Shown here: piece after piece, positions 262 through 63,875 of the stretch
Layout of the letters: each line of letters begins with the position of its first letter
Numbering within the stretch: the first letter of the stretch is position 1
Virus record (IMG/VR): IMGVR_UViG_3300023199_000154
Length of the DNA: 64,000 nt
Reading direction: 5' to 3' (one strand)
DNA from: an uncultured virus (IMG/VR IMGVR_UViG_3300023199_000154)
Taxonomy: Duplodnaviria > Heunggongvirae > Uroviricota > Caudoviricetes
Made by a program: the position numbers and the translations under genes
The notes under the pieces: model-generated
What the model saw: the letters and a program-made list of their open reading frames with translations, nothing else
Told to the model about the DNA's origin: nothing
The model's database searches: none

Positions 262-1023
262 TCACGCCGTATCGGGTGAGGACCCTGAACGGTCGTCATC
301 AGAGGCGACAGGATGTTCGGCTTCTTCTTCCTCATGGCATTCTCCTAGGGCGGGGTCGCACCATCCGCGGTTGAGGGTCCCATCGCACTGTGACTCGAAC
401 CAGCCGTCGTCGGTGCGGTCGTCGATGCCGCGGCCGCCCCAATGGTCGGCGCGGTACCGGCAAGACGGAGGAGGCGGTGTGGAGCGGAGGTCGGCTCGTG
501 CTGCTGCGATGGCGGCCATCCAGCGCGGCCGCGCTTCGGACCACGGCTCGGTGCGGTTGTACGCGGGTGGCCTTGCGCCGTCGAGTCGAAGTTGGGCAAT
601 CCAGCGCGTGCGGTCGCTTCGCGGTGGTGCAACTCCGGTTGCTCGGGAGGAGTAGGCCTTCATTGCGCGGAGGCTTGGACGGTCACTGCCGGCTACGCGC
701 GCGAGGACGTGGAACAGCAGTCGGTGATCTGCGCGATTGCCCCCTTCGTGCTCATGGAAGTAGATGCGAGCGAGGCATTCGACGGGGCCGGCGCATTCTG
801 TTGGCTGCCATCCCTGAGCGGATGTGGCGTCGATGGCGTTGGGAGAGGCTGGTTCGAGTTGGCCCTCGATGAGGATCGGCTCCATGCGGATGACATACGG
901 CATGCGCTCGATCTTCTTCACCACGAACCCCCCCTCTCTTTCCCCGTGGGTGGAGGCGGTCATGGTGGTGAGGGATGTGGCGAGAAGCGCGATCCAGATT
1001 GAATGCGGAAGCAATTTCTTCAT
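262..1023 (-). CDS. Secreted SleB-like cell wall hydrolase (putative)
   Basis: N-terminal hydrophobic signal; CLARIYFHE resembles the SleB/Hydrolase_2 CLAxxIYFE catalytic motif. Confidence 0.5.
   Translation of the reverse strand: MKKLLPHSIWIALLATSLTTMTASTHGEREGGFVVKKIERMPYVIRMEPILIEGQLEPASPNAIDATSAQGWQPTECAGPVECLARIYFHEHEGGNRADHRLLFHVLARVAGSDRPSLRAMKAYSSRATGVAPPRSDRTRWIAQLRLDGARPPAYNRTEPWSEARPRWMAAIAAARADLRSTPPPPSCRYRADHWGGRGIDDRTDDGWFESQCDGTLNRGWCDPALGECHEEEEAEHPVASDDDRSGSSPDTA
925..950 (+). repeat. Dispersed motif copy 1 (inside CDS)
   Basis: GAA CCCCCCC TCTCTTT CCCCGTGGG. Confidence 0.8.
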
Positions 1024-1213
1024 GGGTCTCTCCTTCGGATGGGGCCCTTATCAGGGGTCAGGGCTCATCGGCAAGCCACGTCGGGGCGACGCCGTCGATT
1101 TCTCCGCTTGCCTGATCTGTGGTCAGGAACATGCTGGTCGTCACCTCGTAGAGGGTCACGTTCCCGGCAGGCGTCTTCTTCAGTTTCTCTCGCTTGCTCA
1201 TGCTGCTCCTCCG

Positions 1214-1546
1214 TCATCCATTGGGTCGATACCAGAAGGTGAACTTCGCCTTCACCAGGTCGCGTACTCGGCGCACGAGCTCGTTGCCGCCCAGCTCCTT
1301 CCAGTCGGCCTTGTGCGCCTTGAGCGCTTCGGCCATTTGCCGGTGCGGGATCCGGTGCGCGCTGAAGTCCCACGGCTCGATGCCGCAAGCTTCCGCGAGC
1401 AGCTTGCTCGATTGCGTCGTCGCGCAGTGATGCGGGGTGAGCAAGATCGGTGTCCCTTCGGGCACCGGCTTGATCTCGTAGTCGGTATGCGCCGCGATCG
1501 AGTCGGTGTACCGCCCGATTGCCAATAGCTCGGCGTTCATGCCCAT
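1214..1546 (-). CDS. Hypothetical protein
   Basis: ORF with purine-rich upstream sequence and coding-like composition. Confidence 0.6.
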   Translation of the reverse strand: MGMNAELLAIGRYTDSIAAHTDYEIKPVPEGTPILLTPHHCATTQSSKLLAEACGIEPWDFSAHRIPHRQMAEALKAHKADWKELGGNELVRRVRDLVKAKFTFWYRPNG

Positions 1547-1650
1547 CCTCACCCTCCTCTCGGGCCAGTCCATCGTTCGTGCTCCCGTAGAAAAAAGGAC
1601 CTCCGCGGGGGGTCAAGGGGTTCCGCCTGACGAGCCCACAGCCCACAGCA

Positions 1651-1857
1651 TCATTGCTGCGGGGTGCTCGTCCTCAGCTTCCACAGACGGCGCTCGTACA
1701 TCGGGTCGCCGTCGTGCTCGAGCTTGCCGCGCCGCGAGAGCTCGACGATCGTCAGCCGCGTGGCCTCGATGTCCCAGCCCATCTCCTCGGCGAGGCGTGC
1801 GTACGAAATCGGGCCGTGCGCGGCGAGGGCCTTCTTGACCTTCTGGTAGAACGTCAC
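1651..1857 (-). CDS. Small winged-helix DNA-binding protein (putative)
   Basis: GTG start overlapping the upstream stop; ALAAHGPISYARLAEEMGW...LSRRGKL wHTH pattern. Confidence 0.55.
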   Translation of the reverse strand: MTFYQKVKKALAAHGPISYARLAEEMGWDIEATRLTIVELSRRGKLEHDGDPMYERRLWKLRTSTPQQ

Positions 1858-2156
1858 AGATCGATGTCCTTGAGGTTTACTCGCATCCCGTGGCCTACGA
1901 GCACCTTGATGTCCACCCCTGCACGCTTGGCCTTCATCGCCGCATCCCGCCTCGAGTAGTGAGTCGAGACGGTGTGCGCCACCTGCTGCCCGTAACAGGG
2001 CACGCTCCGTGGCGCGTTGCACGACGGGCAGGCAGCATACAGCACCGAGGGGTCGGTGCGCATGTAGCGGTGAGGGTTCGTGGGGTCGGGTGCGAAGACG
2101 ATCGTAGGCCCACCCGACAGCATCACGAGAACTGCCTGCCCGAGCGGCTTGGGCAT
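1854..2156 (-). CDS. Zinc-finger-like hypothetical protein
   Basis: CPSC..C..H pattern; translationally coupled. Confidence 0.55.
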   Translation of the reverse strand: MPKPLGQAVLVMLSGGPTIVFAPDPTNPHRYMRTDPSVLYAACPSCNAPRSVPCYGQQVAHTVSTHYSRRDAAMKAKRAGVDIKVLVGHGMRVNLKDIDL

Positions 2157-2602
2157 CAGGCATCGCCCTTCGGAATCTGGATCCCGTGCGAGTGAATCGC
2201 GCTGATGATTGCTGCCGCGTTTGCCCTCGCCCAGCTCGACCAAAACTTCTTCGCGAGCAGCGTGTCGTCAGCCTTCCGAGCGACTGCCTCGACGAACATC
2301 GGCCAGTCCTCCTGGTCTCCGTCGATGAACGGACCGATGATCAGCGTGAAGTCCGGGTACGGAGGCTTGTGCAGGATGACGCAGGCGTGGTCGGCATGCT
2401 CGGTGTCGTCGTCCTTGTGCTTCACGCGATGGGCGAATATCGCGTAGATGTCGTCGGGCGAAAACCCCATCTGCCGAAGGAGCTGGCATGCGCACCAGAT
2501 CTCCCAAAGCAGGGGACGTGCTTTGGCGACATCGAACGACTCGACCTGCTCGTCGGTAGGTGCCGGCACGTCTGCTTTCTCGAGATCCATCTCGTCGTTC
2601 AT
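2156..2602 (-). CDS. Hypothetical protein
   Basis: Coupled ORF (MNDEMDL start). Confidence 0.6.
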   Translation of the reverse strand: MNDEMDLEKADVPAPTDEQVESFDVAKARPLLWEIWCACQLLRQMGFSPDDIYAIFAHRVKHKDDDTEHADHACVILHKPPYPDFTLIIGPFIDGDQEDWPMFVEAVARKADDTLLAKKFWSSWARANAAAIISAIHSHGIQIPKGDA

Positions 2603-2952
2603 GATGAGACGAGCTCCTTCTGCTGGGCGATCCATTCACTCACCACGAGCGTGCCACGGTCGCCCTCCGAGGCGACTTCACTCTCGGGCGAGACCTGGCT
2701 CTTCGGAAACCACTCCTCACGCCCATCGGGCAACAGGATGCAGAGCGCTTTCGGGGTTTCGGCCTTGCACTCCGCGTTGTCCACGTCGAACCACTCGTCG
2801 GTTTTGTTGCCACCGCCGAGACCCGACGTGGTTTTCGCAGGCACGCTCTCGCTCGCGGATAGCTGCTTGAGCTCCTGGCGCGCGTCGTCGATGTACTTCG
2901 TTGCGAGCCGGAGCTTCTTGGCGATGCTCTTGGTCAAGTCCGTGTCGTCCAT
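2599..2952 (-). CDS. Phage protein with ETxKA...WxPKSQ motif
   Basis: ETPKALCILLPDGREEWFPKSQV, a pattern common in small phage proteins. Confidence 0.65.
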   Translation of the reverse strand: MDDTDLTKSIAKKLRLATKYIDDARQELKQLSASESVPAKTTSGLGGGNKTDEWFDVDNAECKAETPKALCILLPDGREEWFPKSQVSPESEVASEGDRGTLVVSEWIAQQKELVSS

Positions 2953-2959
2953 GTCTCTC

Positions 2960-3382
2960 CTATCGGTTCGGCAGGTGAATCGGGAAGACGAAACAGGGTA
3001 TGCCCACCAGGGCCGCTTCGGTCACCGTGTTCTGCGTGCCCTTGGACCGGATGCCGACTGCAGGAAGCGCGATGCACCGCGGGCGTCTGAACCGCGAGGC
3101 TGCGTCGGCCATGGCCTGATTGCGAGCGTGGAAGGCATGGGGCTTGGGACCGACGGGCGGATACGAGACGACCTCGATCTCGGGCGGACGTACCTGGTTG
3201 TCGGCCCACCAGGCAGCGAGGGAATCGACTCCAGGGTTCCCCGGTCCGGCCCCGTGGAACAGGCGACGCGGCAGGCCCCGTTTGTCGCGGATGCGGTTGA
3301 GCACCGCGGCCACCTGTGCGTAGTCGGATGCCTGGCGAGTGCCGCACACGATCCACACATCGTCGGGACGCTGACGCTTCAC
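2960..3382 (-). CDS. SLOG/YspA-like (DUF2493-type) protein
   Basis: IVCGTR, HGAG..GVDSLA, RNQAM and SKGT motifs. Confidence 0.7.
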   Translation of the reverse strand: MKRQRPDDVWIVCGTRQASDYAQVAAVLNRIRDKRGLPRRLFHGAGPGNPGVDSLAAWWADNQVRPPEIEVVSYPPVGPKPHAFHARNQAMADAASRFRRPRCIALPAVGIRSKGTQNTVTEAALVGIPCFVFPIHLPNR

Positions 3383-3981
3383 GAGAGCGTTCTTTCCTGT
3401 GGTGGCACGTACTCCATGCCGACGGCTTCGAAGTAGGCGCGCTCGGTCGGTACCGGGATGGCTTCCATGTTGCGGTCGAGCACGCGGCCCTTGTGGAACG
3501 TGACCCCCTCACGACGCTTGGCGTCCTCGATCACGCGCTTGTTCCATTCGGCTGGACCGGTGCGCAGGCAGAAGATGTAGCCCCACTGGTGGGGGTCTTC
3601 GACGATGAACAGGTCGATGGGGATCCCTGTCGCCTTGTCCCGGAGCAGCTTCATCTTCGGCCCATCGCCCATGGGCTTTCCAGTGTCGGGGTTCATGCGA
3701 AGGACCATCCCCCCTTCCTCGCATCGGTTGTAGGAGTCGATGCCAAGAGGAAGCATCGACTCGACCGACTCGGACTGACCAAACAGGTCTTCTCTCGTAC
3801 TGCGGTACTTCGGCAGGGCCACGATCTCGATATCCTTCACCCGCGGCTTGCGCCGGCGGATGGAGCCGGCGATGCGCACCTTCTGGCAGAAGGGCTCGAG
3901 GTGGTGGACGATGGCTTTTGCCACCATCGCCGCATAGGCCCACTCGAAGGGTCGGTCCTTGCCCTGGTGCTGAACGCTCAC
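3379..3981 (-). CDS. DNA polymerase X family nucleotidyltransferase (minimal palm/thumb)
   Basis: IAGSIRR..KDIEIV, IDLF, RTGPAEWN and TERAYFEAVGMEYVPP motifs; GTG start overlapping the upstream stop. Confidence 0.85.
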   Translation of the reverse strand: MSVQHQGKDRPFEWAYAAMVAKAIVHHLEPFCQKVRIAGSIRRRKPRVKDIEIVALPKYRSTREDLFGQSESVESMLPLGIDSYNRCEEGGMVLRMNPDTGKPMGDGPKMKLLRDKATGIPIDLFIVEDPHQWGYIFCLRTGPAEWNKRVIEDAKRREGVTFHKGRVLDRNMEAIPVPTERAYFEAVGMEYVPPQERTLS

Positions 3982-5110: not shown

Positions 5111-5468
5111 GGGCGCTCTCCCTTAGCTCGAAGGAGCAGTCATGCATCACGGTGCATCGCATCTTGGGTGGCAGCCCCCTCGCGACGAGCTTGGCGTTGG
5201 CGAGGTGCTGGATGACCCCCGAGGTCAGCTCGATCAGGTCCCGGAAGTCCTTCCGCTGCGCATCAGTCACCATGTCCTCGATGAACGCGATGCCCAAGGC
5301 GCCGTCGTCGAGGAGGTGGCAGTGGACTTCGGTTTGGATGGAGCGACTCTCGAAGGTGCGCTTCAGGTCCCGTGCGTGCGATTCCATCACATGCTGCAGC
5401 TCGGGGCTGACGTTATCGGGACCCCTGTCATACCCTTCGACCTCGATCACGAGAAGCGTGCCCTTCAT
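5094..5468 (-). CDS. Hypothetical protein
   Basis: ATGA overlap with the parB stop. Confidence 0.6.
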   Translation of the reverse strand: MKGTLLVIEVEGYDRGPDNVSPELQHVMESHARDLKRTFESRSIQTEVHCHLLDDGALGIAFIEDMVTDAQRKDFRDLIELTSGVIQHLANAKLVARGLPPKMRCTVMHDCSFELRESARGDGP

Positions 5469-7237
5469 GCGGCCTCTGGACCCGTTGTGGGCGGCTCGGT
5501 GTCGTCCGATTCGTTCTTCTTGGACTTCTTCTTCGAGGAAGACTTCTTCGAGGAGGCCTTCTTGCCGTTCTTCTTCTTGGACGACTCGCGCTTCTTGCGG
5601 CGCGCGTCCTGTTCGTCCCACTTCGACTTGAGCTCGGCGAGGTTCTTGTCCATCACCTCGTTGAGCGGCACGGCGAGATGGTTCATGGCCATCTCGAACG
5701 GCTCGCTGATGACCTGGTGACCTCGGTAGTGGCGCAGCGCGTAGCGCATGATCACGTCTACCGGATCGAGTTTGCCGCTGGTCATGTCGGCATGCATGGC
5801 CTTGATGACGGCATCGTTGTCTCGCTGCGGGTCGTAGTCCTCCTGTGCGTAGTCGAGGCTCTGCGCGACGCGGCCCATATAGTCCGAGTCGAGAAGCATG
5901 ACGGCGGTGGCGATGAGCCGGTCGTTCAGCGACCGGTCCTTTACCTGCTGGATGTATTCGCGGAAGGTCGGGTCTTCGAGCGCGATGCGGGTGCAGATCT
6001 CGACCACCCCCGCGATGGTCCGATTCGTCTCGTTCTCTCGCTTGCGCTTGAGCCGATCGGTCTTCTCCTTCGGAGTGAGCGTGCCATCGCCGCTCTTCGA
6101 GGTCCTCTTGCGCATCATCGACTTGGCCTTCTTCGAGTCGATGAGATACCGGATGGTTCCAGATGCGTCACGTGCGAGCACGATGTCCTTGGGGTCGGGC
6201 TCGAGCACCTCGAACATGGGCTTGCCGTCGTGGCTCCAGCTCGAGCGCATCAGGTCGTCGTACTCCGCATCGTAGACGAGGTTGTTCGCGCCACCGAACG
6301 CCTTCTTGGCGGCCTTCTTGGTGAGGACGGTACCGCCGATCTTCATGTGGTCCGCATGCAGCCGCTTCCACGTCTCGTCCATCTTCGCCGAATAGCAGGC
6401 GCGGTCGGTGCATCGTCCCTTCGTCTTCACGTCCGCATCGAACAGAGTCTCCTGCGGTTCGTTGCCGGTCATCTTCGGGCACGTGGTACAGGGTCCGGCT
6501 GCGGGGAGGAGATTGTCGTCGGCGGGATCCCATGGCACCGACTCGATGTTGCGCATCATGCTCTCGACCTGATGTCGAGTGGAGAACAGGCTCGACGGCT
6601 CGAAGGGCTCGTCGTCTTCGCGCTCGATCTCCTTCTCGCTGACCGACACCTTCTTGTGCATGCCGCTGTGTCCATAGGCGGCGAACCGACCAGCCTCATC
6701 CTGATCTTGCTCGTCGTGGAGCTGGGAGATCACCAGGGCGTGACCCAGCTCGAACCGGCCGTTGAGGAACAGCTCGCGGTTCTGGTTGGTGAGCGCGAGC
6801 AGGCGCATCCGGCTGTGGATGTACTGGACCGACTTGCCGATCTTCGCCGCGAGCTGCTCGACGGTGTAGCCCAGCTCGAGCACCATCGCCTCGAACGACA
6901 GCGCCTCCTCCATCGAGTGCACGTCTTCGCGCTGGGCGTTCTCGACGTGCTGCATCTCGCGGACCTGCTCGTCGGTCATGTCGCGGATGAGGCACGGCAC
7001 CGTGGGAAGCCCAACCTTGATGGCCGCCCGCTTGCGCCGATGTCCGACGATGCACTCGTAATTCCCTTTGAGACCATCTCCAATCGGCCGAACGATGAGT
7101 GGTTCGATGACGCCGACTTCGGCGAAGGAGTCAGCCAGCTCGGCGATGGACTCGTTCGAGTAGTGCTGGCGAGGGTTGGTGGGGCTGTCTTCGATGATCT
7201 CCGGTGCGATGTCGTAGATGCGTTCCTGCTCGGTCAT
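5465..7237 (-). CDS. parB: ParB/Spo0J family protein (long, PRTRC-ParB-like, basic C-terminal tail)
   Basis: NPR, GVIEPLIVRP, GHRRKRA, ENAQREDV, HTH and CxxC..C..C; start moved to MTEQER after the RBS. Confidence 0.9.
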   Translation of the reverse strand: MTEQERIYDIAPEIIEDSPTNPRQHYSNESIAELADSFAEVGVIEPLIVRPIGDGLKGNYECIVGHRRKRAAIKVGLPTVPCLIRDMTDEQVREMQHVENAQREDVHSMEEALSFEAMVLELGYTVEQLAAKIGKSVQYIHSRMRLLALTNQNRELFLNGRFELGHALVISQLHDEQDQDEAGRFAAYGHSGMHKKVSVSEKEIEREDDEPFEPSSLFSTRHQVESMMRNIESVPWDPADDNLLPAAGPCTTCPKMTGNEPQETLFDADVKTKGRCTDRACYSAKMDETWKRLHADHMKIGGTVLTKKAAKKAFGGANNLVYDAEYDDLMRSSWSHDGKPMFEVLEPDPKDIVLARDASGTIRYLIDSKKAKSMMRKRTSKSGDGTLTPKEKTDRLKRKRENETNRTIAGVVEICTRIALEDPTFREYIQQVKDRSLNDRLIATAVMLLDSDYMGRVAQSLDYAQEDYDPQRDNDAVIKAMHADMTSGKLDPVDVIMRYALRHYRGHQVISEPFEMAMNHLAVPLNEVMDKNLAELKSKWDEQDARRKKRESSKKKNGKKASSKKSSSKKKSKKNESDDTEPPTTGPEAA

Positions 7238-7257
7238 GTTGGTTCCTTTCGGTTTGC

Positions 7258-9457: not shown

Positions 9458-9623
9458 GGACCCCCCCATTGCTACCCCGTGGGGGGAAGGGTGCATGCGG
9501 GCATCAGCGGCGGGACTCCACGGGTCACCGGGTGTGAGGGGGGGTTAGAGCACAGTGCCGGCTCTTGGCTGCCCCTCCATCTGATGCGCGCGCCTCCCCC
9601 ACGGGGTAGCAATGGGGGGGGTC
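9458..9623. repeat. Inverted pair of dispersed motif (copies 2 and 3), candidate origin or regulatory site
   Basis: 9459-9486 GAC7ATTGCTACCCCGTG6 and its near-perfect reverse complement at 9596-9623, intergenic between the ATPase and SSB-like genes. Confidence 0.9.
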
Positions 9624-9658
9624 AGGTCAGACCCCGCCCGTGCGGCCATCGCCGAGCT

Positions 9659-17060: not shown

Positions 17061-17927
17061 TCAGGACCCCCCACTCTGATTCCCCGTGGGGGTGAGAGGC
17101 AGGTGGATCTTCTTCGCGTGCCGCCCGTGCGCCTCGAACGCGATCCCTCGCCCAGAACGCCGCAACCGGTCCGTGTCGAAGCACAACCGGCAGTGGACGC
17201 AGGGCACCTTGCGCGTCTGCGCCGGGCACGGAACAAAGCGGTGACCCGCCATCGAGAAAGCACGCTCCGAGGGGAAGCGTGGAACCACCACCGCCGGCAC
17301 CCAGCCCTCGTCGACGGCCCTCCGAACGTCCAGCGCCGTCTCACATGAAGCGAGTGCCGAGATGGGACCGAAGTCACTCGGCCGGTGCGTCCGCCAGCGG
17401 TGCGTGTAGGTCCACGGCGCGCCTCCCCCCTGCAACAACCATCGCTCCACGCCGCGCGCGAGCCGCTGCGTCGAGACCGGCTCCACGACATCGCCCGAGA
17501 CGTGCAGGCGCAGGTCCCGGCCTCCCCTCGCGCCGTCCAGCGGCAGCATCGTCTCCTCGAGGAGCTCGGCCTCGTGCTGTATGACGCGGCGGCCATCGAG
17601 GCCCTCGGAGTCGGTGTCGAGCTTCTTCATCAGCCACGCTGTGTAGCCGGTCTGCGGATAGCATCCGTTGTCGCGGAAGAAGCAGTCGGTGGGACAGGTG
17701 GACCCGATCGAGACGTAGGTCGCGGCCACGAAAGGAGGAAGCGCCACCGGACGCCGGGTTCCTTTCCAGTCGAACTCCTCGCCGACCACCGCGAGCTTGC
17801 TGTTCGCACAGTTAGCACGCAGCGACACCCCAGGGCGTGCGTGGGTGCCAGTCTTCGGTCGAGTCGAGGGGTCGATGAGATGGTTGAGCCGGCGCCCCAG
17901 GGCGCGCTTGCGGTGAGCCTGGCTCAC
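17061..17927 (-). CDS. Cys-rich gp88-like/radical-SAM-related phage protein
   Basis: NSKL, TCPTDC..GCY, LRLHVSGD, WTYTH, CPAQ..CVHCRLC and IAFEAHG motifs. Confidence 0.65.
   Translation of the reverse strand: MSQAHRKRALGRRLNHLIDPSTRPKTGTHARPGVSLRANCANSKLAVVGEEFDWKGTRRPVALPPFVAATYVSIGSTCPTDCFFRDNGCYPQTGYTAWLMKKLDTDSEGLDGRRVIQHEAELLEETMLPLDGARGGRDLRLHVSGDVVEPVSTQRLARGVERWLLQGGGAPWTYTHRWRTHRPSDFGPISALASCETALDVRRAVDEGWVPAVVVPRFPSERAFSMAGHRFVPCPAQTRKVPCVHCRLCFDTDRLRRSGRGIAFEAHGRHAKKIHLPLTPTGNQSGGS
17064..17092 (+). repeat. Dispersed motif copy 4 (last codons of CDS)
   Basis: GGA CCCCCC ACTCTGATT CCCCGTGGGGG. Confidence 0.85.
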
Positions 17928-21240: not shown

Positions 21241-21270
21241 GACCCCCACGGGGTGGAAAAGTGGGGGGTC
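21241..21270 (-). promoter_or_regulatory. Dispersed motif copy 5, overlapping a putative sigma70-type promoter
   Basis: Minus strand GAC6ACTTTTCCACCCCGTGGGGG; TTTCCA-17 bp-CAGAAT with TG extension upstream of the 21195 gene. Confidence 0.7.
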
Positions 21271-21673
21271 AGGGCACCGGCCAGTAGTAGTCGAGCTTCG
21301 CCTGCTCGTCCCATCCGAACTGACGGTACCACGCGGGGTTCTTGTGAAGGAGCGCTGCGCGGTGGCTCGAATGCAGCCTGCGGATGCCGAGCCACCAGGG
21401 TTTCCGGAAGTCGCCCTGGTCACCCGGAATCGCGAACGACTGCTCGAACCCGCGCTGCTTCCACTCGAGGCAGATCTCACGCAGGTATTGTCGTAGCGCT
21501 GGCGTGAAGCCGCGCCACATCTTCGCCGCGGGGTGATGACACCAGCCGTTCGGCGAGTAGGGGTGGATGGCACCGAGGAGCGTGATCGCTTCTCGCCTCT
21601 GGTTTCCAAGGCGCTTGTCGTCGAGGCACTGCGCGGACTCGCGCAAGCTCGGGTATGGCAAGAAGGTCTGCAC
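21269..21673 (-). CDS. Pyrimidine-dimer DNA glycosylase/DenV-like (MSMEG_6728-type)
   Basis: MQTFLPY, LDDKRLGNQRRE, HPAAKMW and SSHRAALLHK motifs. Confidence 0.85.
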   Translation of the reverse strand: MQTFLPYPSLRESAQCLDDKRLGNQRREAITLLGAIHPYSPNGWCHHPAAKMWRGFTPALRQYLREICLEWKQRGFEQSFAIPGDQGDFRKPWWLGIRRLHSSHRAALLHKNPAWYRQFGWDEQAKLDYYWPVP

Positions 21674-21843: not shown

Positions 21844-23271
21844 TCAGGACCACCCCATTTCTTCCCCGCGGGGGTGTCGGGTCAGTGCGATGGCCTCCTC
21901 GGCGTGACGCTTGTAGATGCTGTCCTTGCCGTCGAGGGCGGCGCAGGCTCGTGCGATGCGAAAGAGGCTCGCATACCGCACCGCGCCGTCTTTCTGCGAA
22001 GCCATTTCCTCGATGGCCTTCAACGCGGACTTCTTGAAGCCGTCGATGACGCTGTTCGGCGCCTGCCGCGACAGCTCCTCACGCGCATCCACGACACGAC
22101 GCTTGAGCGTGGACGACTCCATGCAGGGAGCCTTGGTCTTCGGGCGCTTGATGAGGGGGACCCAGATGCGGATCGGGAGATCTGGCAAGAGGTGATCGAT
22201 GCGCCGCCAGTACCCATCGATCCGATTCGGAGTGCATGAGCACAACGAAGCCCATCCGCAAGGACAAGCGAGCATCGACCCCACGACCATCGGCGAAGCC
22301 GGCAGCACGACGCGCTGATCGGTGCGAGCCACAACAGCATGACCCTCGGCAACCGCCACCTGAACAGCACCGATCGCTCTTCGGCTGAACTCGGGCAGAT
22401 CGTCGAGAAACAGCACGCCGTGGTGCGCGAGCGACACTTCACCCGGCCGAACAGGCGATCCACCGCCCGTCAAAGCCGCTGGAATGCAGGTGTGGTGTGG
22501 CGCACGAAAGGGGCGGGCCATCGGCCTGGTCACCCGAAGCCCAGATGCACTGTGGACGCAGGCGACCTCAAGCTCCTCACGCTCGGTGAGGTCCGGCAGG
22601 ATGCCAGGCAGCCTTCGCGCGAGCATCGTCCTGCCCGATCCAGGCGGCCCGATGAGCAGCACGTTCATCGAAGCGGCCGCAGCCACTGACAAGCCGAAGG
22701 CCGCATCGCGGTGCTCCATCACATCGCTCATGTCCGGGTACCTAGCCGGAGCTGCTGGTGCTCTTCGATCGGCTTTCCGGCTCCACAACAGATCAACCGC
22801 TTCGGCCAGTGAGGACACCTTGTCTACGTGACGGAACACGAAGTACGTCTCGTTCTCGTTGGCGCTCGGTACGAGCGCTCGGCTTCGGCACGCCACCAGC
22901 ATCGGCACCACCCCGCGTACCGGTCGTACCTTGCCAGACAGGGACAGCTCGCCGACGATCAGCCTGTCTTCGAGCGGCGTCGCGTCTTGCCGCAACAGCG
23001 CGATGATGCCGAGCGCAATCGGCAGGTCGAGATGCGACGTGCTGTTCTTGCCAATGTCGGGGAGATGCGCGGTGAAGCACAGGCCAGGCTTCATCTCCAC
23101 ACCCATCTCCTTCAGCGCTGTGACCACGCGGACTCGCGTCTCGCGGACTTGCCTCTCGGGGATCCCCAAGATATCGAGTACCAACCCCGAGCTATCGCTC
23201 ACACCCACCTCGATCTCGATCGGACGCGCATACACGCCCACCAAGATCGCTGTCTCCACATTCACCTTCAT
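21844..23271 (-). CDS. comM: ComM/YifB Mg-chelatase-like ATPase homolog, catalytically degenerate
   Basis: DLPIALG, GELSLSG, PFRAPHH, PGEVSLAHHGVLFLD and CPCG motifs; Walker A reads GPPGSGRT. Confidence 0.9.
   Translation of the reverse strand: MKVNVETAILVGVYARPIEIEVGVSDSSGLVLDILGIPERQVRETRVRVVTALKEMGVEMKPGLCFTAHLPDIGKNSTSHLDLPIALGIIALLRQDATPLEDRLIVGELSLSGKVRPVRGVVPMLVACRSRALVPSANENETYFVFRHVDKVSSLAEAVDLLWSRKADRRAPAAPARYPDMSDVMEHRDAAFGLSVAAAASMNVLLIGPPGSGRTMLARRLPGILPDLTEREELEVACVHSASGLRVTRPMARPFRAPHHTCIPAALTGGGSPVRPGEVSLAHHGVLFLDDLPEFSRRAIGAVQVAVAEGHAVVARTDQRVVLPASPMVVGSMLACPCGWASLCSCTPNRIDGYWRRIDHLLPDLPIRIWVPLIKRPKTKAPCMESSTLKRRVVDAREELSRQAPNSVIDGFKKSALKAIEEMASQKDGAVRYASLFRIARACAALDGKDSIYKRHAEEAIALTRHPRGEEMGWS
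21847..21874 (+). repeat. Dispersed motif copy 6 (variant, last codons of comM)
   Basis: GGA CCACCCC ATTTCTT CCCCGCGGGGG. Confidence 0.7.
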
Positions 23272-31611: not shown

Positions 31612-31902
31612 GGCGTGTTTCTCCTTTTTCTTGCAACGGCAACCCCATTACCGGAACGCAGAAGGATGCGCGCGACGCACGCGCACGCGACGCACGCGCA
31701 CGTTGCCGCTGCTCCTGGTGTGGCCAGTGTATGGGTTTCCGCCATACACACACCATGGCATATATGACGCATTCGGTCAAGCCGGTTTGGCCAACGATTC
31801 CGCGAGTTTGCAATGATGGTATGTGGCCATATGTGGCCATATGGCACACCGGCACGAAGATCTGGACCCCCCCACTTCTCCCCCGTGGGGTACCCTGGGC
31901 GC
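31612..31902. promoter_or_regulatory. Divergent control region with tandem repeats and dispersed motif copy 7 (31864-31890)
   Basis: ATGTGGCCAT twice at 31821-31840; GGAC7ACTTCTCCCCCGTGGGG directly followed by TACCCT and an ATG at 31903. Confidence 0.7.
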
Positions 31903-37056: not shown

Positions 37057-37528
37057 GGCAGATCACGCCCTCCCTCGAAAGAGCCGCTGCCACATCCTCG
37101 TCCACTTCGTCCTCGTCCACCGCCGCGCCGAGCCCACGGCCGGTCGCGGTCATCCAGAACATCCCGACGAGGCCGACCCCGAGAATGCCGAGGAAGATCC
37201 TTCCGGTGCGCTTCTTCGCGGCCTCCGCGCCCTCTGTCTCAAGCTCGAGGCGCACCTTCGACAGGACGTACCGAAACTGTTCCTGGGAGCAGTGCTCGTC
37301 CACCGTGCCGTCCTCGAGCATCGTGCGGAGTTGCTCGGCACCGAACCCCGCGCTGATCGCATCGATGCTCCCATCGGGTAACTCGACCTCGAAAAGCCGG
37401 TCCGCCGGCTGTGCCTCGAGAAGCTCGGCGACCCGCGCCACCTCCTCTGGACACGAGCGACTCTGACCGAACCCCCCCATTGCTACCCCGTGGGGGTCGT
37501 CGTGGAATTCGTAGCGTCCCAGGTCCAT
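37049..37528 (-). CDS. Membrane protein
   Basis: MGGFGQ near the N-terminus; TM near the C-terminus. Confidence 0.65.
   Translation of the reverse strand: MDLGRYEFHDDPHGVAMGGFGQSRSCPEEVARVAELLEAQPADRLFEVELPDGSIDAISAGFGAEQLRTMLEDGTVDEHCSQEQFRYVLSKVRLELETEGAEAAKKRTGRIFLGILGVGLVGMFWMTATGRGLGAAVDEDEVDEDVAAALSREGVICHG
37469..37496 (+). repeat. Dispersed motif copy 8 (inside CDS)
   Basis: C7 ATTGCTA CCCCGTGGGGG, identical core to 9461-9485. Confidence 0.9.
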
Positions 37529-38409: not shown

Positions 38410-38757
38410 CTACCGCGCCGACTGGCGCTCCCACCACCAGGCAGCGCCGAGCATGAGCGCCCCGACCCAGAGCACCCAGCGGCCGCCGGAGCGCCCTGGA
38501 GGCGGGCTCGGGGGCTCGAATGGGCCCATCGCCCCGTCGTCCCCCCCGTCGCCCTCCTCAGGCGGCTCGGGCGGCTCAGGGCCTCCGTTCCCCCCACGGG
38601 GGGTCAGTGGGGGGGTCGTGCGCTCCCGGCCCTGAGACTGCCGCATGGGCGGGATCTGGACCTCTTCCTCCTCGTCCTCCTCGTCTTCGAGTTCGACGAT
38701 GTTACCGTCCTCGTCGACGGGCTGGGAAGTGACCCGGATGTCCTGCTCTTCGGCCAT
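38410..38757 (-). CDS. Acidic/Pro-rich membrane-anchored protein
   Basis: C-terminal TM. Confidence 0.6.
   Translation of the reverse strand: MAEEQDIRVTSQPVDEDGNIVELEDEEDEEEEVQIPPMRQSQGRERTTPPLTPRGGNGGPEPPEPPEEGDGGDDGAMGPFEPPSPPPGRSGGRWVLWVGALMLGAAWWWERQSAR
38590..38617 (-). repeat. Dispersed motif copy 9 (inside CDS)
   Basis: Reverse complement GA C7 ACTGACC CCCCGTGGGGGG. Confidence 0.85.
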
Positions 38758-47261: not shown

Positions 47262-48242
47262 TCAACCCCGCGGCTCCCCTTGCTTCAGCGCGGGCGCCGG
47301 TCCCAGCGCGATGATACGTATCGCCCCCGGCGTCCCCTGCGGCGGGATTCGCGCCCTTTCCCGTGATTTCGGGCCGCGCTTCTCCACTACCTCCCGCGGC
47401 AAATACGGCAGGCTGCGTCGATAACGATACCTGCGCTTGAGCCCGCACTTCGCCGTTCCCTGGCCCTCGGGGCAAAGCATCTTCGCGTAGAACGCCCGCA
47501 CGTCCGGGATGAAGTAGTCATCCTCCGGATGAGGCCCCGGCGTGTACCCCGCTCCCGACGACCACTGCTTGCAGCGAACCTTGCCGCTCGGTCCGCGGAA
47601 GTACTGCACACACACCTTCGCCGCCCCGTCGAGGCCGTCGAGCCGATTGCGGCCGCCGCGAATGCAGGTGCGCAGAAACCGGTTCCTCATGTGATGGACT
47701 CGCTTCAACAACGACTCCATCAGCTCCTTGTCCGCCGCGTGCTCACTTCGGTCCCGAATCCGGATCGGAACGCTCATCCAGTGCGTCAGCGCGCGCTGCG
47801 CCTCGCGGTCGATGGTCATCATCTCGCGTGATGAGCTGCACACTGGCTTGACCGATTTGATCATCGCCTCGGCGTTACGACGGTGCTGTTCCATCAGCGA
47901 CAGGTGCTCGTCCGGCGGAAGCCCGAACCCCCCCACTGCCCCCCCGTGGGGTCGTCGAGCCATCCATCGTGCCGCCCAGATCATCAGCACACCGATCGTC
48001 GTCGCGCGCGAGAACGTACGCTCCATCTCGGCGCGGACGGTTGCGCTCTCGAGCAGCGCAATCTGGACCCCGGTGCCCATCGGCACTTCGCATCCCTGCG
48101 ACTCGAGCGCGGTGGCGATGCCGTTGGCTGCACGAGCGGGGCCGCTTGGATCGGCCATGTCCTCGGCGAGCCATTGCTCGAGCTCGAGGATCGCTTCGGG
48201 GAACGCCTCCTCGAGCTCGTCAGTCGTGGGCACGAGCGCCAT
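47262..48242 (-). CDS. Virion-module protein (acidic N-terminus, basic C-terminus)
   Basis: Long ORF in the operon; VGGFG. Confidence 0.65.
   Translation of the reverse strand: MALVPTTDELEEAFPEAILELEQWLAEDMADPSGPARAANGIATALESQGCEVPMGTGVQIALLESATVRAEMERTFSRATTIGVLMIWAARWMARRPHGGAVGGFGLPPDEHLSLMEQHRRNAEAMIKSVKPVCSSSREMMTIDREAQRALTHWMSVPIRIRDRSEHAADKELMESLLKRVHHMRNRFLRTCIRGGRNRLDGLDGAAKVCVQYFRGPSGKVRCKQWSSGAGYTPGPHPEDDYFIPDVRAFYAKMLCPEGQGTAKCGLKRRYRYRRSLPYLPREVVEKRGPKSRERARIPPQGTPGAIRIIALGPAPALKQGEPRG
47925..47951 (+). repeat. Dispersed motif copy 10 (inside CDS)
   Basis: GAA C7 ACTGCCC CCCCGTGGGG. Confidence 0.85.
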
Positions 48243-55797: not shown

Positions 55798-55821
55798 GTC
55801 GGCAAGCTCCTGTCGTTCGAT

Positions 55822-61029: not shown

Positions 61030-61500
61030 GTGTCAATGGTTGACCGAATTTGAGTTGCCATCCTCGGCAACCATCCGGAATGATTGATATTTCATACCGA
61101 TTTAGCAACCAACTTCCACCGCGGCACCCCCAGGGTGTCCACCACGGCCCCTCAGTACCCCCTCCCCCCTAGTACTTAGTTGTATATGAGAAATGATACA
61201 CTTAACAATTACACACACTACATATAGCTACCAACACCTACACATGCGCACACATACATCCGGGGACCCCCGCGGTGGAAGTTTGCAAATATCAGCAACA
61301 TATCCATGCACAATCATTGTGGTTTCGCAACACCGCTCAAGTTTTCCGCATTACGTATCATCGCCCAGATACATGTAGCCCCCATCACATATATGGACAC
61401 GGGCCAACCATGATACGTGCCCGACGAGGTAAAAGGAGAACGGGTGGCTAACGGCACCCCCCGATCACGACCACCCACGGGGGAGAAAAGTGGGGGGTTC
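61030..61500. promoter_or_regulatory. AT-rich non-coding region (origin/att/control candidate) with 14-bp inverted repeat and motif copy 11 (61474-61500)
   Basis: Marked GC drop; AACTTCCACCGCGG 61111-61124 / CCGCGGTGGAAGTT 61270-61283. Confidence 0.65.
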
Positions 61501-61622
61501 GGACCACAGGGTGTGCCGATTGATACGCTTCGGGTGGGTTGGCGGTGAGCGAACAAGGCCCCCTCAGCGGATCGAGCCGCTTATCAGAAACTCACCCCCC
61601 CCCTCCGGCCGGCGCCAGCATG

Positions 61623-62240
61623 CTAGGGGCGCATCGCCTGCTGGACGCCCCCCGGTCCCCAGACGGGGCCCTCGCGGCGGCAGGTGCAGTCGCTCTCGCC
61701 CCGGCGGCAACGCGCTCTATCCGGCAGCCTGCAAACCAGGCCGTGGGCCCGGTCAGCTCCGCGGCCCGAGCACTGCTCGAGCACGTGGATGTACTCGTGG
61801 ACGATGTGGGCCTTGGGGACGCGGCCGTCCTCGGCGTAGGAGTCGTGGACGATGAACAGCCGGTGCTCGTGGCCGCCGAGGAACTCGTTGCCGTCGCCCC
61901 AGCACGCCGGCCAGCTCCCGACGCAGGGGGTCCGCGTGCAGGATTGCGCGCAGCCCCACGGGCATCCCTCGCTCGGCTGGTAGCCCGGGCAGTTGCCGGG
62001 GTTGCAGTATCCGCACAAGCCCGGGAACTCGTCGTCGCCGGCGACGATGAGCCGCATGTAGGTCCGCTCCTCGACGCAGCGCTCGGTGGCGATGTCCTCG
62101 AGATCGCGCTCAGTCCATGCTCGGTCGATGCGGTCGAGCAGCTGGTGCTCGGCGGGCGACGGCGGGTAGGCCTGGGGCGGAAGCGTCATCCCGCATCCGG
62201 AGGCAACGAGGGCGACGGCGGTGAGGGTGGCGATGCGCAT
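61623..62240 (-). CDS. Cys-rich lipoprotein with HExxH metallopeptidase motif
   Basis: Lipobox VASGC; HEYIH. Confidence 0.65.
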   Translation of the reverse strand: MRIATLTAVALVASGCGMTLPPQAYPPSPAEHQLLDRIDRAWTERDLEDIATERCVEERTYMRLIVAGDDEFPGLCGYCNPGNCPGYQPSEGCPWGCAQSCTRTPCVGSWPACWGDGNEFLGGHEHRLFIVHDSYAEDGRVPKAHIVHEYIHVLEQCSGRGADRAHGLVCRLPDRARCRRGESDCTCRREGPVWGPGGVQQAMRP

Positions 62241-62263
62241 GGCCTCCAAGGTAGCATCGGGGG

Positions 62264-62746
62264 ATGCGAGGTCTCGGCGACCAGTACTGCGTGTCCATCC
62301 CCGCACGGCCCGCGCGCGAGACCCGCGGCTACGCGCTGTGGAAGCTGTCGCGCTCCGAGCTCGGTCGCCTGCTGGCCCGCCTGACGGCACGCAAGGTCCG
62401 CTTGGGCCCGAAGGGCTTTCGGACCGCCATCGCTCGCCGGCCGGCGTGCACCCGCGCCCATGAGGGCGGTCTCGGGGCGCTCGGGGGCCTGCACGGGGCC
62501 GGTCGCGACGTGCCGGGCGCTCGACGGCTTCGGAAGCGGTGCCGCACCGTCGCCCTGTACGACCCGCACCACCCCGACCCTCGGATGCGCAAGCGGCCGC
62601 GTGAGAAGTACGACGAGATCTTGAGCGTCTACACCCTCAACGTTCTGTCGACGGCCGAGGGGCGGCGGGTGCTTCGAGAGATCCATTCGCTGCTCAAGCC
62701 CGGCGGTCGTGCGGTCTTGGCCGTGCGCCGCGACACCTGCAGGTGA
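62264..62746 (+). CDS. Class I SAM-methyltransferase-like protein (divergent)
   Basis: TAIAR, YDPHH, YDEILSVYTLNV, LLKPGG..AVRRD; start uncertain. Confidence 0.6.
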   Translation: MRGLGDQYCVSIPARPARETRGYALWKLSRSELGRLLARLTARKVRLGPKGFRTAIARRPACTRAHEGGLGALGGLHGAGRDVPGARRLRKRCRTVALYDPHHPDPRMRKRPREKYDEILSVYTLNVLSTAEGRRVLREIHSLLKPGGRAVLAVRRDTCR

Positions 62747-62774
62747 ATCACATGGACAGGAACGAAGTCATCTA

Positions 62775-62936
62775 ATGGCAAACGGAATCATCGGCGGCGG
62801 GCTCCTGCTCGCATTTGGCATAGCGCCCGGATGGATGGACGAGTCCGAATCAGCCGACTGGTACAACGACCAGTGCCGCAAGATCAAAACGCGACGTGCG
62901 CGCCAGTCCCCGACTCTCCAAAGGACACGACGCTGA
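62775..62936 (+). CDS. Small protein with hydrophobic N-terminus
   Basis: Short ORF. Confidence 0.4.
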   Translation: MANGIIGGGLLLAFGIAPGWMDESESADWYNDQCRKIKTRRARQSPTLQRTRR

Positions 62937-62947
62937 GGTCCCTGCCG

Positions 62948-63157
62948 ATGAGCGCCATCGGAAAGCAATCTCGCCGGCCCTCCGGAAGGCACGTCTGGGT
63001 CAACGACATCTCCGCTCGAGACCCGGACGACCTCGATCGCGTCGTTCGGCGTTGCAAGGCCTGTGGAACGCTCGACACCTGGGAGCTCGCGCGCGAAGCG
63101 TGTCCGATGGAACGGCAGTACCTGATGCAGCAGAAGAACCGCGCGTTCATCTCCTGA
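62948..63157 (+). CDS. Small zinc-binding protein
   Basis: GAGG RBS; CKAC. Confidence 0.45.
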   Translation: MSAIGKQSRRPSGRHVWVNDISARDPDDLDRVVRRCKACGTLDTWELAREACPMERQYLMQQKNRAFIS

Positions 63158-63695
63158 ACGCCAACGATCTCGGCGAACGACGGTTCTTCCACAACGGATA
63201 GGCCCTGAGCGAGGAGTCGATGTACCAGCGGTGCTCGGTCTGCGCCCACGTGTGCAGGCCCCACCAGCGGGGCACGATGACGTAGACGCGATCGGCCACC
63301 CGCTGCCACTCCACGAGGGCCGACTCGGGATCCTCGAGGTGTTCGAGCACGTGGCTCGCGATCACCGCACCGAAGTACTTGTCGGGGTAGTTGAGCGCGA
63401 GCGCGTCGCCGTGGCACGCCCGAGGTCCTAGGGGAAGCGCACCGAGTGGCGTGGGGCACGGGTTGTTCGCCGGTGCCGCCAGGTCGAGGTTCACGTCGCC
63501 GTAGCGTGTCGGCCCGAACAGGAACGCACGGAAGCTCGAGCCCTCGGTTCCGGAACCGACGTTGAGCAGGGGCTTTCCGACACGATGGCAGTAGCGGCGT
63601 GCGTCCTTGGCCGCCCGTGCCGGACGCACCATCACGTCGTAGAACCAAGCGCCTGCGACGTAGCCCAGACCGATCTTCCACAGCCCCATGCCCAC
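63147..63695 (-). CDS. Class I SAM-dependent methyltransferase with hydrophobic N-terminus
   Basis: LLNVGSG, GDALALNYPD, SHVLEHL. Confidence 0.8.
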   Translation of the reverse strand: MGMGLWKIGLGYVAGAWFYDVMVRPARAAKDARRYCHRVGKPLLNVGSGTEGSSFRAFLFGPTRYGDVNLDLAAPANNPCPTPLGALPLGPRACHGDALALNYPDKYFGAVIASHVLEHLEDPESALVEWQRVADRVYVIVPRWWGLHTWAQTEHRWYIDSSLRAYPLWKNRRSPRSLAFRR

Positions 63696-63705
63696 AGGTT
63701 ACCAC

Positions 63706-63875
63706 GACCCCCCACTTTGCCTCCCCGTGGGGTGCGGCGCTACCATGGTTGCGGGAGCTGGCGCGGCCCCATGAGCCTCCTGCGCGTCAGGCGGCACCTC
63801 GCCACGGACTCAACCTCGGACCAACCCGCTGTGTGCAGTCACTACTGCCCCCACGGGGGACCAGAGGGGGGGTCC
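63706..63875. repeat. Inverted pair of dispersed motif (copies 12 and 13)
   Basis: 63706-63732 GAC6ACTTTGCCTCCCCGTGGGG and 63848-63875 in reverse orientation. Confidence 0.85.

Follow-up and report, generated by a model that had tools for sequence, protein, structure and literature searches.

The genome of an uncultured phage carries 13 dispersed copies of a two-box DNA word of about 28 nt with the consensus R-A-C6-8-W-Y-T-N4-CCCCG(T/C)GGG(G/T). These copies are real and non-random, they are kept at the level of DNA, and they are old. We tentatively propose, at a little short of an even chance, that a single sequence-specific DNA-binding protein, or a pair of proteins, would use them as docking sites on double-stranded DNA; the phage, or possibly its host, would encode this protein or pair. 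Binding by a protein, the identity of the binder and the effect of its binding are what we infer for the 13 copies. Counts of copies and genes refer to the window, i.e. the whole 64-kb stretch of DNA that was analysed; the phage genome measures ~75.6 kb, of which ~11.6 kb lie outside the window.

The motif and its copies

All 13 copies claimed by an earlier, sequence-only reading are present, 0-3 nt from the coordinates it gave, and they can be aligned without gaps. In a comparison with shuffled sequence, the exact box CCCCGTGGGG was found 10 times against 0.24 expected, and none of 100 shuffles reached 10; with at most one mismatch it was found 27 times against 10.06 expected. The 25-nt consensus with at most three mismatches gave 12 matches against 0.00 expected (shuffle maximum 0). 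Scanning with a position weight matrix (PWM) gave a bimodal result: the 13 copies score 33-42 bits, values inflated because the matrix was derived from the same copies, and everything else stays at or below 10 bits except for shifted registers of one copy, with no scores of intermediate size. The 5' half does not occur apart from the whole (12 of 12 occurrences lie within copies), and the same holds for 14 of the 15 occurrences of the box.

Approximately 40 bits of information are held in two blocks, separated by a variable 4-nt spacer, and flanks more than ~3 nt away from the motif hold none. A spacer that varies between blocks that do not is better explained by constraint than by recent origin alone. 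The box is near-palindromic (CCCCG-T/C-GGGG, 8 of 10 positions symmetric) and forms a perfect palindrome in one of 13 copies. The complete motif lacks symmetry: nothing mirrors the C-run block, and in 12 of 13 copies the central GT has the same orientation with respect to the C-run. The identity noticed earlier between the copies at 9458 and 37469 extends over 26 nt; both have the same 7-nt spacer as the copy at 9597, and three other copies have ACTTT in common.

Positions in the genome

Nearly all genes lie on the minus strand. The copies are unbiased in orientation (8 plus, 5 minus; P=0.29), and 8 of 13 are opposed to the direction of the genes. Gaps between clusters, which were defined post hoc, vary less than expected at random (CV 0.42, P=0.013). 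Six copies lie in coding sequences and six are non-coding; three are on stop codons and four well inside genes.

Three coding copies write closely similar peptides. The copy at 925..951 (+), GAAC7-TCT-CTTT-CCCCGTGGGT, encodes THGEREGGF directly past the signal-peptide-like N-terminus of CDS 262-1023(-). The copy at 37469..37495 (+) forms codons 11-19 (PHGVAMGGF) of gene 37049-37528(-), whose start ATG has AGGAGG 8 nt upstream, and the copy at 47925..47951 (+) is read in frame as PHGGAVGGF within gene 47262-48242(-). Two others form the last nine codons of their genes: 17064..17091 (+), adjoining the stop codon of the DUF7227 gene 17061-17927(-) (PTGNQSGGS*), and the variant copy 21847..21873 (+), with CCACCCC and the fully palindromic box CCCCGCGGGG, past the conserved C-terminus of the ComM-like gene 21844-23637(-) (PRGEEMGWS*). 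The sixth, 38592..38618 (-), is sense-oriented and falls into a linker of low complexity (TTPPLTPRGG) in gene 38410-38757(-). Another copy, 21244..21271 (-), overlaps the TGA that ends gene 21269-21673(-), which encodes a pyrimidine-dimer glycosylase.

Non-coding copies include two inward-facing pairs, with members 122-126 bp apart. In the non-coding zone 9402-9658, the copy at 9458..9484 (+) precedes the start of gene 8295-9401(-) by 56 nt; its partner at 9597..9624 (-), with C8 and the spacer ATTGCTA, follows the stop of gene 9659-10306(-) at a distance of 34 nt, with a unique hairpin (9649-9672) ahead of it. Between them, a degenerate third copy can be read from the sequence at 9513..9545 (-), where AAC7-TCA is followed by CCCGTGGAG ~16 nt on, not 7. 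Only one clearly decayed copy was seen in all. In the second pair, 63706..63732 (+) is located 10 nt upstream of the start of the methyltransferase-like gene 63147-63695(-), and a terminator-like hairpin (63903-63888) precedes 63849..63875 (-). The copy at 31864..31890 (+) borders a repeat-rich non-coding region and precedes, by 12 nt, a possible ORF of 59 aa on the plus strand (31903-32082); 61473..61500 (-), whose box ends in GGGT, marks the upstream edge of the ~600-bp non-coding region 61030-61620. The two pairs have nothing in common beyond their 28-nt arms; the motif is no part of a larger unit.

Copies inside genes and the possibility of spread by insertion

The sequence-only reading listed six copies within coding sequences, with the peptides HG..GGF, PTG..GGS, PRG..GWS and PPLTPRG, and took selection as appearing to act on the DNA. 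The list is correct, the first peptide being found three times as T/PHG..GGF, and the view that nucleotides rather than peptide are kept is supported by a codon test and by a diverged homolog. Glycine codons within the six copies are GGG in 16 of 16 cases, as opposed to 24% elsewhere in the genome, and the spacer uses the rare codons AGA (3%), GTA (4%) and AGT (5%). A homolog of gene 37049-37528 with 36% identity (BLASTP E 5e-20) has the motif peptide THGERMGGF at the equivalent position. In a homolog of gene 47262-48242 with 71-72% identity, PLGDSVGGF stands where the phage has PHGGAVGGF. Retention of the motif peptide in such diverged homologs means that the site outlives most of the flanking protein sequence. 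Leucine replaces histidine in the box-encoded part of the second homolog, so that the copy may be decaying there. Another homolog, P0201, seems to lack exactly the motif block, as seen in a MAFFT alignment only, with the gap region outside BLASTP coverage. Selection and copy-and-insert spread account equally well for this gap and for the identical spacer in three copies.

The motif could accordingly be a miniature insertable repeat of 27-28 nt, spread by copy-insertion or recombination in the phage clade, with no function for the phage and tolerated in genes only where it landed in frame in permissive segments. The spacers shared within the two groups of three copies speak for this, as do the length of the coding copies (exactly nine codons), their foreign-looking codon usage, their location at permissive sites (behind a signal peptide, codons 11-19, a linker, non-conserved C-terminal tails), the gap in P0201 and the opposite orientation in four of four close pairs, which is also the arrangement of REP doublets. 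REP/REPIN elements and Rickettsia RPEs are short GC-rich inverted repeats that form opposed pairs and add peptides to proteins by in-frame insertion in genes, and the motif resembles them in its GC-richness, its opposed pairs and its in-frame copies. However, it is much shorter than RPEs, and it differs from REP/REPIN in that a search of the window's 110 ORFs revealed no transposase or RAYT-like gene, covariation lends a hairpin no support and there are almost no decayed copies. Unlike all of these, one copy, that of gene 37049-37528, has been kept across a divergence so deep that neutral DNA would have been lost. The pairs are alike only in their arms, no contig joint was found at any of five copies examined, and the P0201 gap is subject to the coverage limit mentioned. 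We consider spread without function rather doubtful.

Insertion and docking might also be combined. The two-box docking site would then be at the same time a discrete 27-nt unit that is copied and inserted through an uncultured phage clade; in-frame landings within genes would write T/P-H-G-x-x-x-G-G-F, and the copies would be kept because they provide a genome-wide DNA-binding machine, for example an orphan ParB-type clamp with an asymmetric loading site, with points for loading at even intervals. We hold this combination to be improbable. If true, both the type of site and its route of acquisition would be ones not described for the ParB family.

Occurrence in other genomes

The motif is present in none of 160 related loci (~1.85 Mb). 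Three of 401 sampled Myxococcota genomes matched (4 hits, against 6 for a reversed control), the other 398 being without the motif. A scan of one genome per species gave matches at at least 120 loci, each of them a single match among the matches listed; among 80 of these at least 120 matches, no assembly recurred more than three times, and the recurring assembly bears a different, fully palindromic repeat. In 2.9 million viral contigs, 19 single-match stretches were found, on 19 different contigs. These counts weigh against a repeat of the host genome (REP, uptake signal or similar) read by a host factor, a reading to which the spacing of the inward-facing pairs and the ComM-like and RadC-like proteins encoded by the phage would lend some colour, and which we regard as very improbable.

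Transcription signals and RNA structure

A transcription-level signal was considered in two forms, a two-block promoter of ECF type (GAAC-N16-CGT) and an RNA hairpin with the role of a terminator, an attenuator or a processing site. Promoters of ECF sigma factors have AAC at -35 and CGT at -10, with 16-17 nt in between, and are directed at the genes that they drive. The motif likewise has two blocks at fixed spacing, four copies contain (C)GAAC...N16...CGT, and the six non-coding copies and three on stop codons would suit such a signal. Against it stand the eight copies opposed to genes and the four well inside them, and scanning the 110 ORFs revealed no sigma factor gene, so that the promoter option of the sequence-only reading is disfavoured. 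Nor could its -10-like hexamers abutting three intergenic copies be substantiated, as a sigma-70 scan gave 0, 0 and 1 sites in the three regions, none of them at a copy. Throughout the regions scanned, no copy falls on a site resembling a sigma-70 promoter or an intrinsic terminator.

As to the hairpin, the C-run can pair with the G-run (MFE -10.6 to -20.5 kcal/mol), but z-scores range from -1.97 to +1.21. The two runs are complementary by composition: pairing amounts to 65.7% compared with 64.5% in shuffles, 130 of 500 of which pair equally well or better, and covariation is 0.083 compared with 0.074. There is no T-tract; Rfam gave no match at E<=1 over the whole window, which contains no tRNA or tmRNA genes, and gene ends of this genome carry perfect, unique hairpins of their own. 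Loop residues (T at -5, CCCC) do not vary in either orientation, a constancy of which an RNA reader could make no use. Taken in either form, a transcription-level signal seems to us quite unlikely.

The ParB-family protein

A candidate reader is encoded by the phage itself. The gene at 5465..7237 (-) has its likely start at Met 7237 and specifies a ParB-family protein of 590 aa with ParB_N (1e-22) and HTH_ParB (1.7e-14) domains by Pfam, a Cys-rich middle and a Lys/Ser-rich tail; TIGR00180 matches with 132 bits (cut-off 58). The copies could be its loading or centromere sites of the parS/OB type, with the HTH on the near-palindromic box and a second module, the Cys-rich middle or the basic tail, on the C-run. 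P1 ParB also reads a two-box site. Consistent with this, the 110 ORFs scanned yielded no ParA, the box of variant copy 21847 is perfectly palindromic, and the best plasmid homolog (32% identity over 57% of the query) comes from a Myxococcus plasmid where the ParB homologs are accompanied by 11 copies of one perfect palindrome, 10 of them intergenic. The account in PMC11790492 describes ParB-family sites as acting within genes and from afar, independently of orientation; KorB, loaded at OB sites, affects promoters up to 1.5 kb away.

With KorB OB sites of plasmid RK2, ParB-parS and Noc-NBS, the motif has in common dispersed sites of high information, some of them inside genes, and an HTH protein of the ParB family encoded by the phage, with no ParA found. 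Those sites are palindromes of 13-16 bp with symmetric dimers as readers (PMC11790492), whereas the motif is bipartite and asymmetric, its GT and C-run fixed relative to each other in 12 of 13 copies. The ParB gene region (5465-7570) holds no copy and no recurrent palindrome, the nearest copies being 1.9 and 4.5 kb off. A dispersed site network exists in one of four other elements with a ParB homolog and in none of pYRE, G406 and G407, and only two of the 160 related loci encode this ParB. The suggestion that the copies are parS sites for this protein finds no particular support, and we judge it unlikely.

Proposed docking sites and comparison with known networks

The broader proposal of the sequence-only reading, a network of binding sites, accounts for more of the observations than any other reading: the copies occur in both orientations, inside and outside genes, with coupled boxes and at fairly even spacing. 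Its specific versions as parS or promoter are less favoured, as set out above; its third version, signals for genome condensation or packaging, would be a possible role. As docking sites, the copies would consist of two obligately coupled parts at a fixed distance, the C-run block R-A-C6-8-W-Y-T and the near-palindromic box. Such a two-part site suggests two DNA-binding modules of one protein, or a dimer bound to the box with an accessory contact to the C-run. The sites, which are fairly evenly distributed, would act whatever their orientation or gene context, and their role would be genome-wide, in silencing or distant regulation, clamp loading, partition or compaction, by analogy with stoperators or KorB OB sites. 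Points against the proposal are the lack of the motif in the 160 related loci, the spacer shared by three copies, the gap in P0201 and the leucine in the box-encoded part of the other homolog, and no one candidate reader stands out.

Phage P1 C1 operators and phage N15 centromere repeats are likewise dispersed over their genomes, each set serving one regulator or partition protein. They have in common with the docking sites proposed here that the sites of one protein are scattered over a phage genome, in their case a temperate one, and are set apart, as commonly described, by differing sequence, length and architecture. Stoperators of cluster A mycobacteriophages (L5 gp71, TipsytheTRex repressor) are 13-mers found in promoters, short intergenic spaces and gene junctions of a temperate phage genome, with orientation following transcription (PMC9283540). 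Their repressor is given there as monomeric, with an HTH and a Stoperator domain, and two DNA-binding modules read an asymmetric site (PMC9283540). The motif differs from them in its 28 bp with a homopolymer block, in its random orientation (8:5) and in the four copies well inside genes, and no stoperator-type repressor was recognised among the 110 ORFs by Pfam and PHROGs. What both have in common is the presence of many copies of one asymmetric site over a phage genome, here 13 in 64 kb.

Copy number and anatomy of the motif

In the 64-kb window we counted 10 instances of the box CCCCGTGGGG; the number expected from dinucleotide-preserving shuffles is 0.24, and none of the shuffles contained 10 boxes. 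When one mismatch is allowed, the count rises to 27, against 10.06 expected. An A-C6-8 run is located at a fixed distance 5' of all exact boxes and of three one-mismatch boxes, giving 13 copies that align without gaps. These are the 13 copies described in the sequence-only reading, found with an offset of 0-3 nt. A 25-nt consensus with up to three mismatches has 12 matches, against 0.00 expected (maximum in any shuffle 0). The thirteenth copy, 61473, lies outside the register of this consensus. A position weight matrix trained on the 13 copies scores these same copies at 33-42 bits and the rest of the window at 10 bits or less, except for shifted registers of one copy; the gap in the middle of the score distribution is real despite the self-training. 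The identity noticed earlier between the copies at 9461 and 37472 extends over 26 nt of copies 9458 and 37469.

Conserved positions were counted over the 13 copies, with the box as anchor. G/A-A at -17 to -15, W at -7, Y at -6 and Y at -2 are invariant or nearly so, and T at -5 is present in 13/13 copies. Positions -14 to -8 are occupied by C, with one A in the variant copy and an A at -9 in the four C6 copies. CCCCGTGGGG itself is near-invariant (T is replaced by C once and the final G by T twice), and G is found at +10 in 10/13 copies. Little or no information is present at -4, -3 and -1, or more than about 3 nt outside either edge. All 12 occurrences of the 5' half R-A-C6-8-W-Y-T in the window fall within copies, as do 14 of the 15 occurrences of the box pattern; the two halves are obligately coupled. 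The box is palindromic at 8/10 positions. Variant copy 21847 carries a perfect palindrome, CCCCGCGGGG, as its box, and in the remaining 12 copies the central GT keeps one fixed orientation relative to the C-run. The complete 7-nt spacer ATTGCTA is common to copies 9458, 9597 and 37469, and ACTTT to three further copies.

Placement of the copies in the phage genome

The window covers the greater part of the genome of an uncultured phage (about 75.6 kb). Its genes code for a ParB-like protein, an RNase T-type exonuclease, a Sak4-like annealase, a PD-(D/E)XK nuclease, a DUF7227 protein, a pyrimidine-dimer glycosylase, a ComM-like ATPase, RadC, VWA, DUF932 and SprT-like proteins, a Dam-type methyltransferase, an M23 peptidase, an integrase and an HNH endonuclease. 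The best matches of the ComM-like protein reach at most 51% identity and come from several phyla. Nearly all genes, including every gene with a Pfam match, are carried by the minus strand; the motif copies divide 8:5 between plus and minus.

Six copies are non-coding (9458, 9597, 31864, 61473, 63706 and 63849). Among these, 9458/9597 and 63706/63849 form inward-facing pairs with boxes 122 and 126 bp apart, respectively. Three copies lie on gene ends. Copies 17064 and 21847 form the final nine codons of two genes, DUF7227 and ComM-like respectively; both are read in the same frame and end TCC-TGA. Copy 21244 overlaps the TGA of the glycosylase gene. The ComM-like tail containing 21847 follows the conserved ...AEA-x-x-R block of the C-terminus and belongs to a part of the protein that differs among 11 homologs. 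The remaining four copies are well within genes: 925 directly after a signal-peptide-like N-terminus, 37469 as codons 11-19 of a gene whose ATG is preceded by a good AGGAGG, 38592 in a low-complexity linker, and 47925 in an open frame that continues, with positive coding potential, on either side. Reading the sense strand at each site upheld the earlier assignment of six copies to coding sequences.

Between the first inward-facing pair, a degenerate third copy is found at 9513-9545 (-); its AAC7 block is intact and its box is weakened to CCCGTGGAG and shifted by about 9 nt. Directly after copy 17064, a small CxxC...CxxC (zinc-ribbon-like) ORF is present at 16870-17061 (-), whose ATG overlaps the DUF7227 stop (TGATG) and which itself overlaps the next called gene. 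Next to copy 31864, the stretch 31600-31860 is repeat-rich and non-coding, bounded by the start of a minus-strand gene (31611) and by a possible ORF on the plus strand (31903-32082; 59 aa, membrane). It contains direct repeats CATATGGCCACATATGGCCACAT, a palindrome GCCATATGTGGCCATATGGC (31826-31845) and a duplicated GCGTGCGTCGCG tract, and appears to be an independent operator or switch region with different sites of its own.

Constraint on DNA within genes

All 16 of the 16 Gly codons within the six copies in coding sequences are GGG, which accounts for 24% of Gly codons elsewhere in the phage genes (0.242^16, about 1e-10). The spacer codons are rare ones: AGA (3%), GTA (4%), AGT (5%), CCA (8%) and GCA (10%). 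Judged by this codon choice, selection in the motif copies is on DNA rather than on peptide, in agreement with the sequence-only reading.

Copies 925, 37469 and 47925 are read in one common frame as T/P-H-G-x-x-x-G-G-F. With the 159-aa protein carrying 37469 as query, an exhaustive search retrieved four proteins at E <=0.001, the query included. One homolog, P0200, is 36% identical to it by BLASTP (E 5e-20), and the alignment spans the motif block (DLGRYDF---THGERMGGFGQ vs DLGRYEFHDDPHGVAMGGFGQ). As the peptide signature is intact across the block at this identity, it has been kept despite deep divergence of the protein. Another homolog, P0201, has a gap of 9 residues against P0200 where the motif block would be when aligned by MAFFT (...YD------FGQ...); because the BLASTP alignment covers only the C-terminal half, a clean indel is suggested at most. 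P0200, P0201 and the protein P0073 each come from one short contig, of 7.4 kb for P0200 and 2.8 kb for P0073. A homolog of the gene carrying 47925 (71-72% identity) has PLGDSVGGF at the equivalent position, with the C-run half retained and the box-centre His codon altered.

Distribution beyond the phage

For wider scans we used the pattern ACCCCCC-N6-10-CCCCGTGGGG, which matches 10/13 copies. In 2.9 million viral contigs it was found in 19 stretches with a single match each, on 19 separate contigs, and in a collection with one genome per prokaryote species in at least 120 stretches, again with a single match per locus. The extended consensus is absent among the genome-collection matches listed; among the same matches, one assembly recurring three times has another, fully palindromic repeat. 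The 401 Myxococcota genomes scanned gave 4 hits, distributed over three genomes; the reversed control gave 6.

Related loci, 160 in number (up to 50% identity, about 1.85 Mb), were gathered through alignment of the neighbouring phrog_9210-like protein. They contain five lone boxes and no bipartite motif (0/160). Of the comparison foreseen in the sequence-only reading, the excess over shuffled sequence held, and recurrence in related DNA was not seen in these 160 loci. As matches elsewhere are sparse and the 160 related loci have no bipartite copy, the motif is assigned to a narrow uncultured lineage, visible via proteins only (P0200, P0073).

No match was obtained by blastn of 52090-57900 against deposited phages, nor were relatives found in viral contigs scanned with three single proteins. 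A 40-nt motif query of phage and plasmid collections also returned nothing, a weak result for a short, low-complexity query. In a full-text literature search on the two box strings, the papers listed look like unrelated primer or sequence matches. Private dispersed repeats of other kinds are present in 3 of the 102 related loci of at least 10 kb. A promoter-like module of about 60 nt is repeated six times at locus L174, with five units in one orientation and one reversed, and five times in a single orientation at L296; L164 has five hairpin-type repeats (CGGATGCG...GGGCATCCGA) in both orientations.

RNA, transcription and mobility

Copies can fold, since the C-run with its AC is roughly the reverse complement of the GT with its G-run. 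Hairpin z-scores against shuffles range from -1.97 to +1.21. On the 13-copy alignment, pairing covers 65.7% of cells against 64.5% in shuffled alignments (130/500 shuffles are as high), and covariation is 0.083 against 0.074. Rfam gave no match at E <=1 across the whole window, and no tRNA or tmRNA genes were found in it. Gene ends have unique perfect hairpins of the phage's own. Promoter or terminator function is improbable: in scans near the intergenic copies, no sigma-70 promoter-like or intrinsic-terminator-like signal coincides with a copy, and the signals found are at chance level. G-quadruplex, i-motif and triplex structures, judged from sequence, were dropped; four G-runs are present in 47925 only.

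The convergent pairs do not represent a larger duplicated element, as their alignment is confined to the arms. None of the 110 ORFs scanned was recognised as a transposase, RAYT-like gene or sigma factor. In assembled contigs of three sequencing runs over 2001-22000, no contig joints were seen at any of the five copies covered, and the sole loose contig end, at 9485, is explained by the identical copy at 37469; as these are assembled contigs and not raw reads, minority rearrangements and RNA ends are invisible in them. Run X2 contains the same phage with zero differences and hence no usable population variation.

Proposed docking sites, a rival insertable repeat and the candidate reader

Our preferred, though tentative, reading is that a sequence-specific protein docks on double-stranded DNA at the 13 copies. 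Several properties point this way: two blocks rich in information that keep a fixed distance across a free spacer, obligate coupling of the halves, a DNA-level constraint strong enough to override codon choice, and retention of one copy through deep divergence. The copies also follow neither a preferred orientation (8:5, P=0.29) nor the gene map, which indicates transcription from one strand, and the gaps between clusters are rather even (CV 0.42, P=0.013, for clusters defined after seeing the data). The main rival, a miniature insertable repeat without function, seems unlikely to us. It would account for spacers identical between copies, a length of nine codons, placement in permissive segments and the possible indel in P0201, but it would have to operate without a mobilising gene among the 110 ORFs scanned and to leave no decayed copies to speak of, and it sits poorly with the fact that P0200 has kept its copy. 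Both readings can be combined, as functional sites may have been gained by copy-insertion.

If the copies are docking sites, their asymmetric two-block form points to a protein that carries two DNA-binding modules, or else to a dimer that occupies the near-palindromic box and makes an accessory contact with the C-run. Stoperator repressors are a case of the first kind, one protein placing two DNA-binding modules on an asymmetric site (PMC9283540). Binding would then result in silencing or regulation at distance, clamp loading, partition or compaction; for clamp loading, KorB offers a precedent (PMC11790492).

The obvious candidate reader is the ParB-family protein encoded at 5465-7237 (ParB_N 1e-22, HTH_ParB 1.7e-14, TIGR00180 132 bits). 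It probably starts at an internal Met, with a length of 590 aa, and has a Cys-rich middle and a Lys/Ser-rich tail. No ParA was found alongside it in the window. Its gene contains neither a motif copy nor a recurrent palindrome, and a conventional palindromic parS elsewhere in the window was rejected, no palindrome recurring there. A homolog is encoded at only 2/160 related phage loci, and both whole contigs are free of a dispersed motif. Among plasmids, the protein is matched best by two from Myxococcus. One of them, NZ_CP123279.1, encodes two long ParB homologs and has, in 50 kb, 11 copies of a palindrome core AGACGTCT, mostly CGCAGACGTCTGCG (for example at 12763, 14729, 25843, 40586 and 47370). 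Ten of the 11 are intergenic, five precede the next gene by 125-160 bp and three flank the two ParB genes; apparently they form a KorB-style operator network. Several are followed by a conserved CATACACT-like element. The other plasmid has clustered long repeats only, and the plasmid parallel for reading by ParB is thin. Further candidate readers encoded in the window are a zinc-finger protein (1854-2243), possible small HTH and RHH proteins around 1651-1857 and 18580-18801, and a RAMA-like protein (19095-19805).

In some temperate phages and plasmids, dispersed phage-private site networks (stoperators, KorB OB sites) place control or organisation of the whole genome under one protein, and dispersed private networks as such are already known. 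In contrast to these, the present motif is bipartite and asymmetric, 28 bp long with about 40 bits, contains a homopolymer block, shows no orientation preference and runs in frame through at least four genes, overriding codon preference. A copy surviving at 36% protein identity offers a clean system in which a DNA signal and a coding sequence share letters. If the reader protein is found, the protein-site pair would be a new specificity module; were it the orphan ParB-like protein, the ParB family would gain a loading site that is not a palindrome. Should the motif be a selfish 27-nt insertion instead, it would be among the smallest known in-frame mobile repeats.

Other features of the window

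The stretch 61030-61620 (about 600 bp), between the HNH endonuclease gene and the gene 61623-62390, is AT-richer, has strongly negative coding potential in all six frames and contains many short ATAT/GTGT words; it may be a main regulatory region or origin. The genes for the ComM-like ATPase, RadC, VWA, DUF932, SprT-like protein and Dam-type methyltransferase (21844-33567) make up a combination that is characteristic of conjugative elements, in their leading regions. The gene 9659-10306 (-), which lies upstream of motif pair 9458/9597, codes for a protein without Pfam match, with a highly acidic tail DEEDDDDVDLAEL reminiscent of SSB-type C-termini. At 37003-37023, GGACCCCCCAC is directly followed by GTCGTCGG, which resembles, possibly by chance, the 5' block of the motif joined to the post-box sequence of 37469/47925, minus spacer and box.
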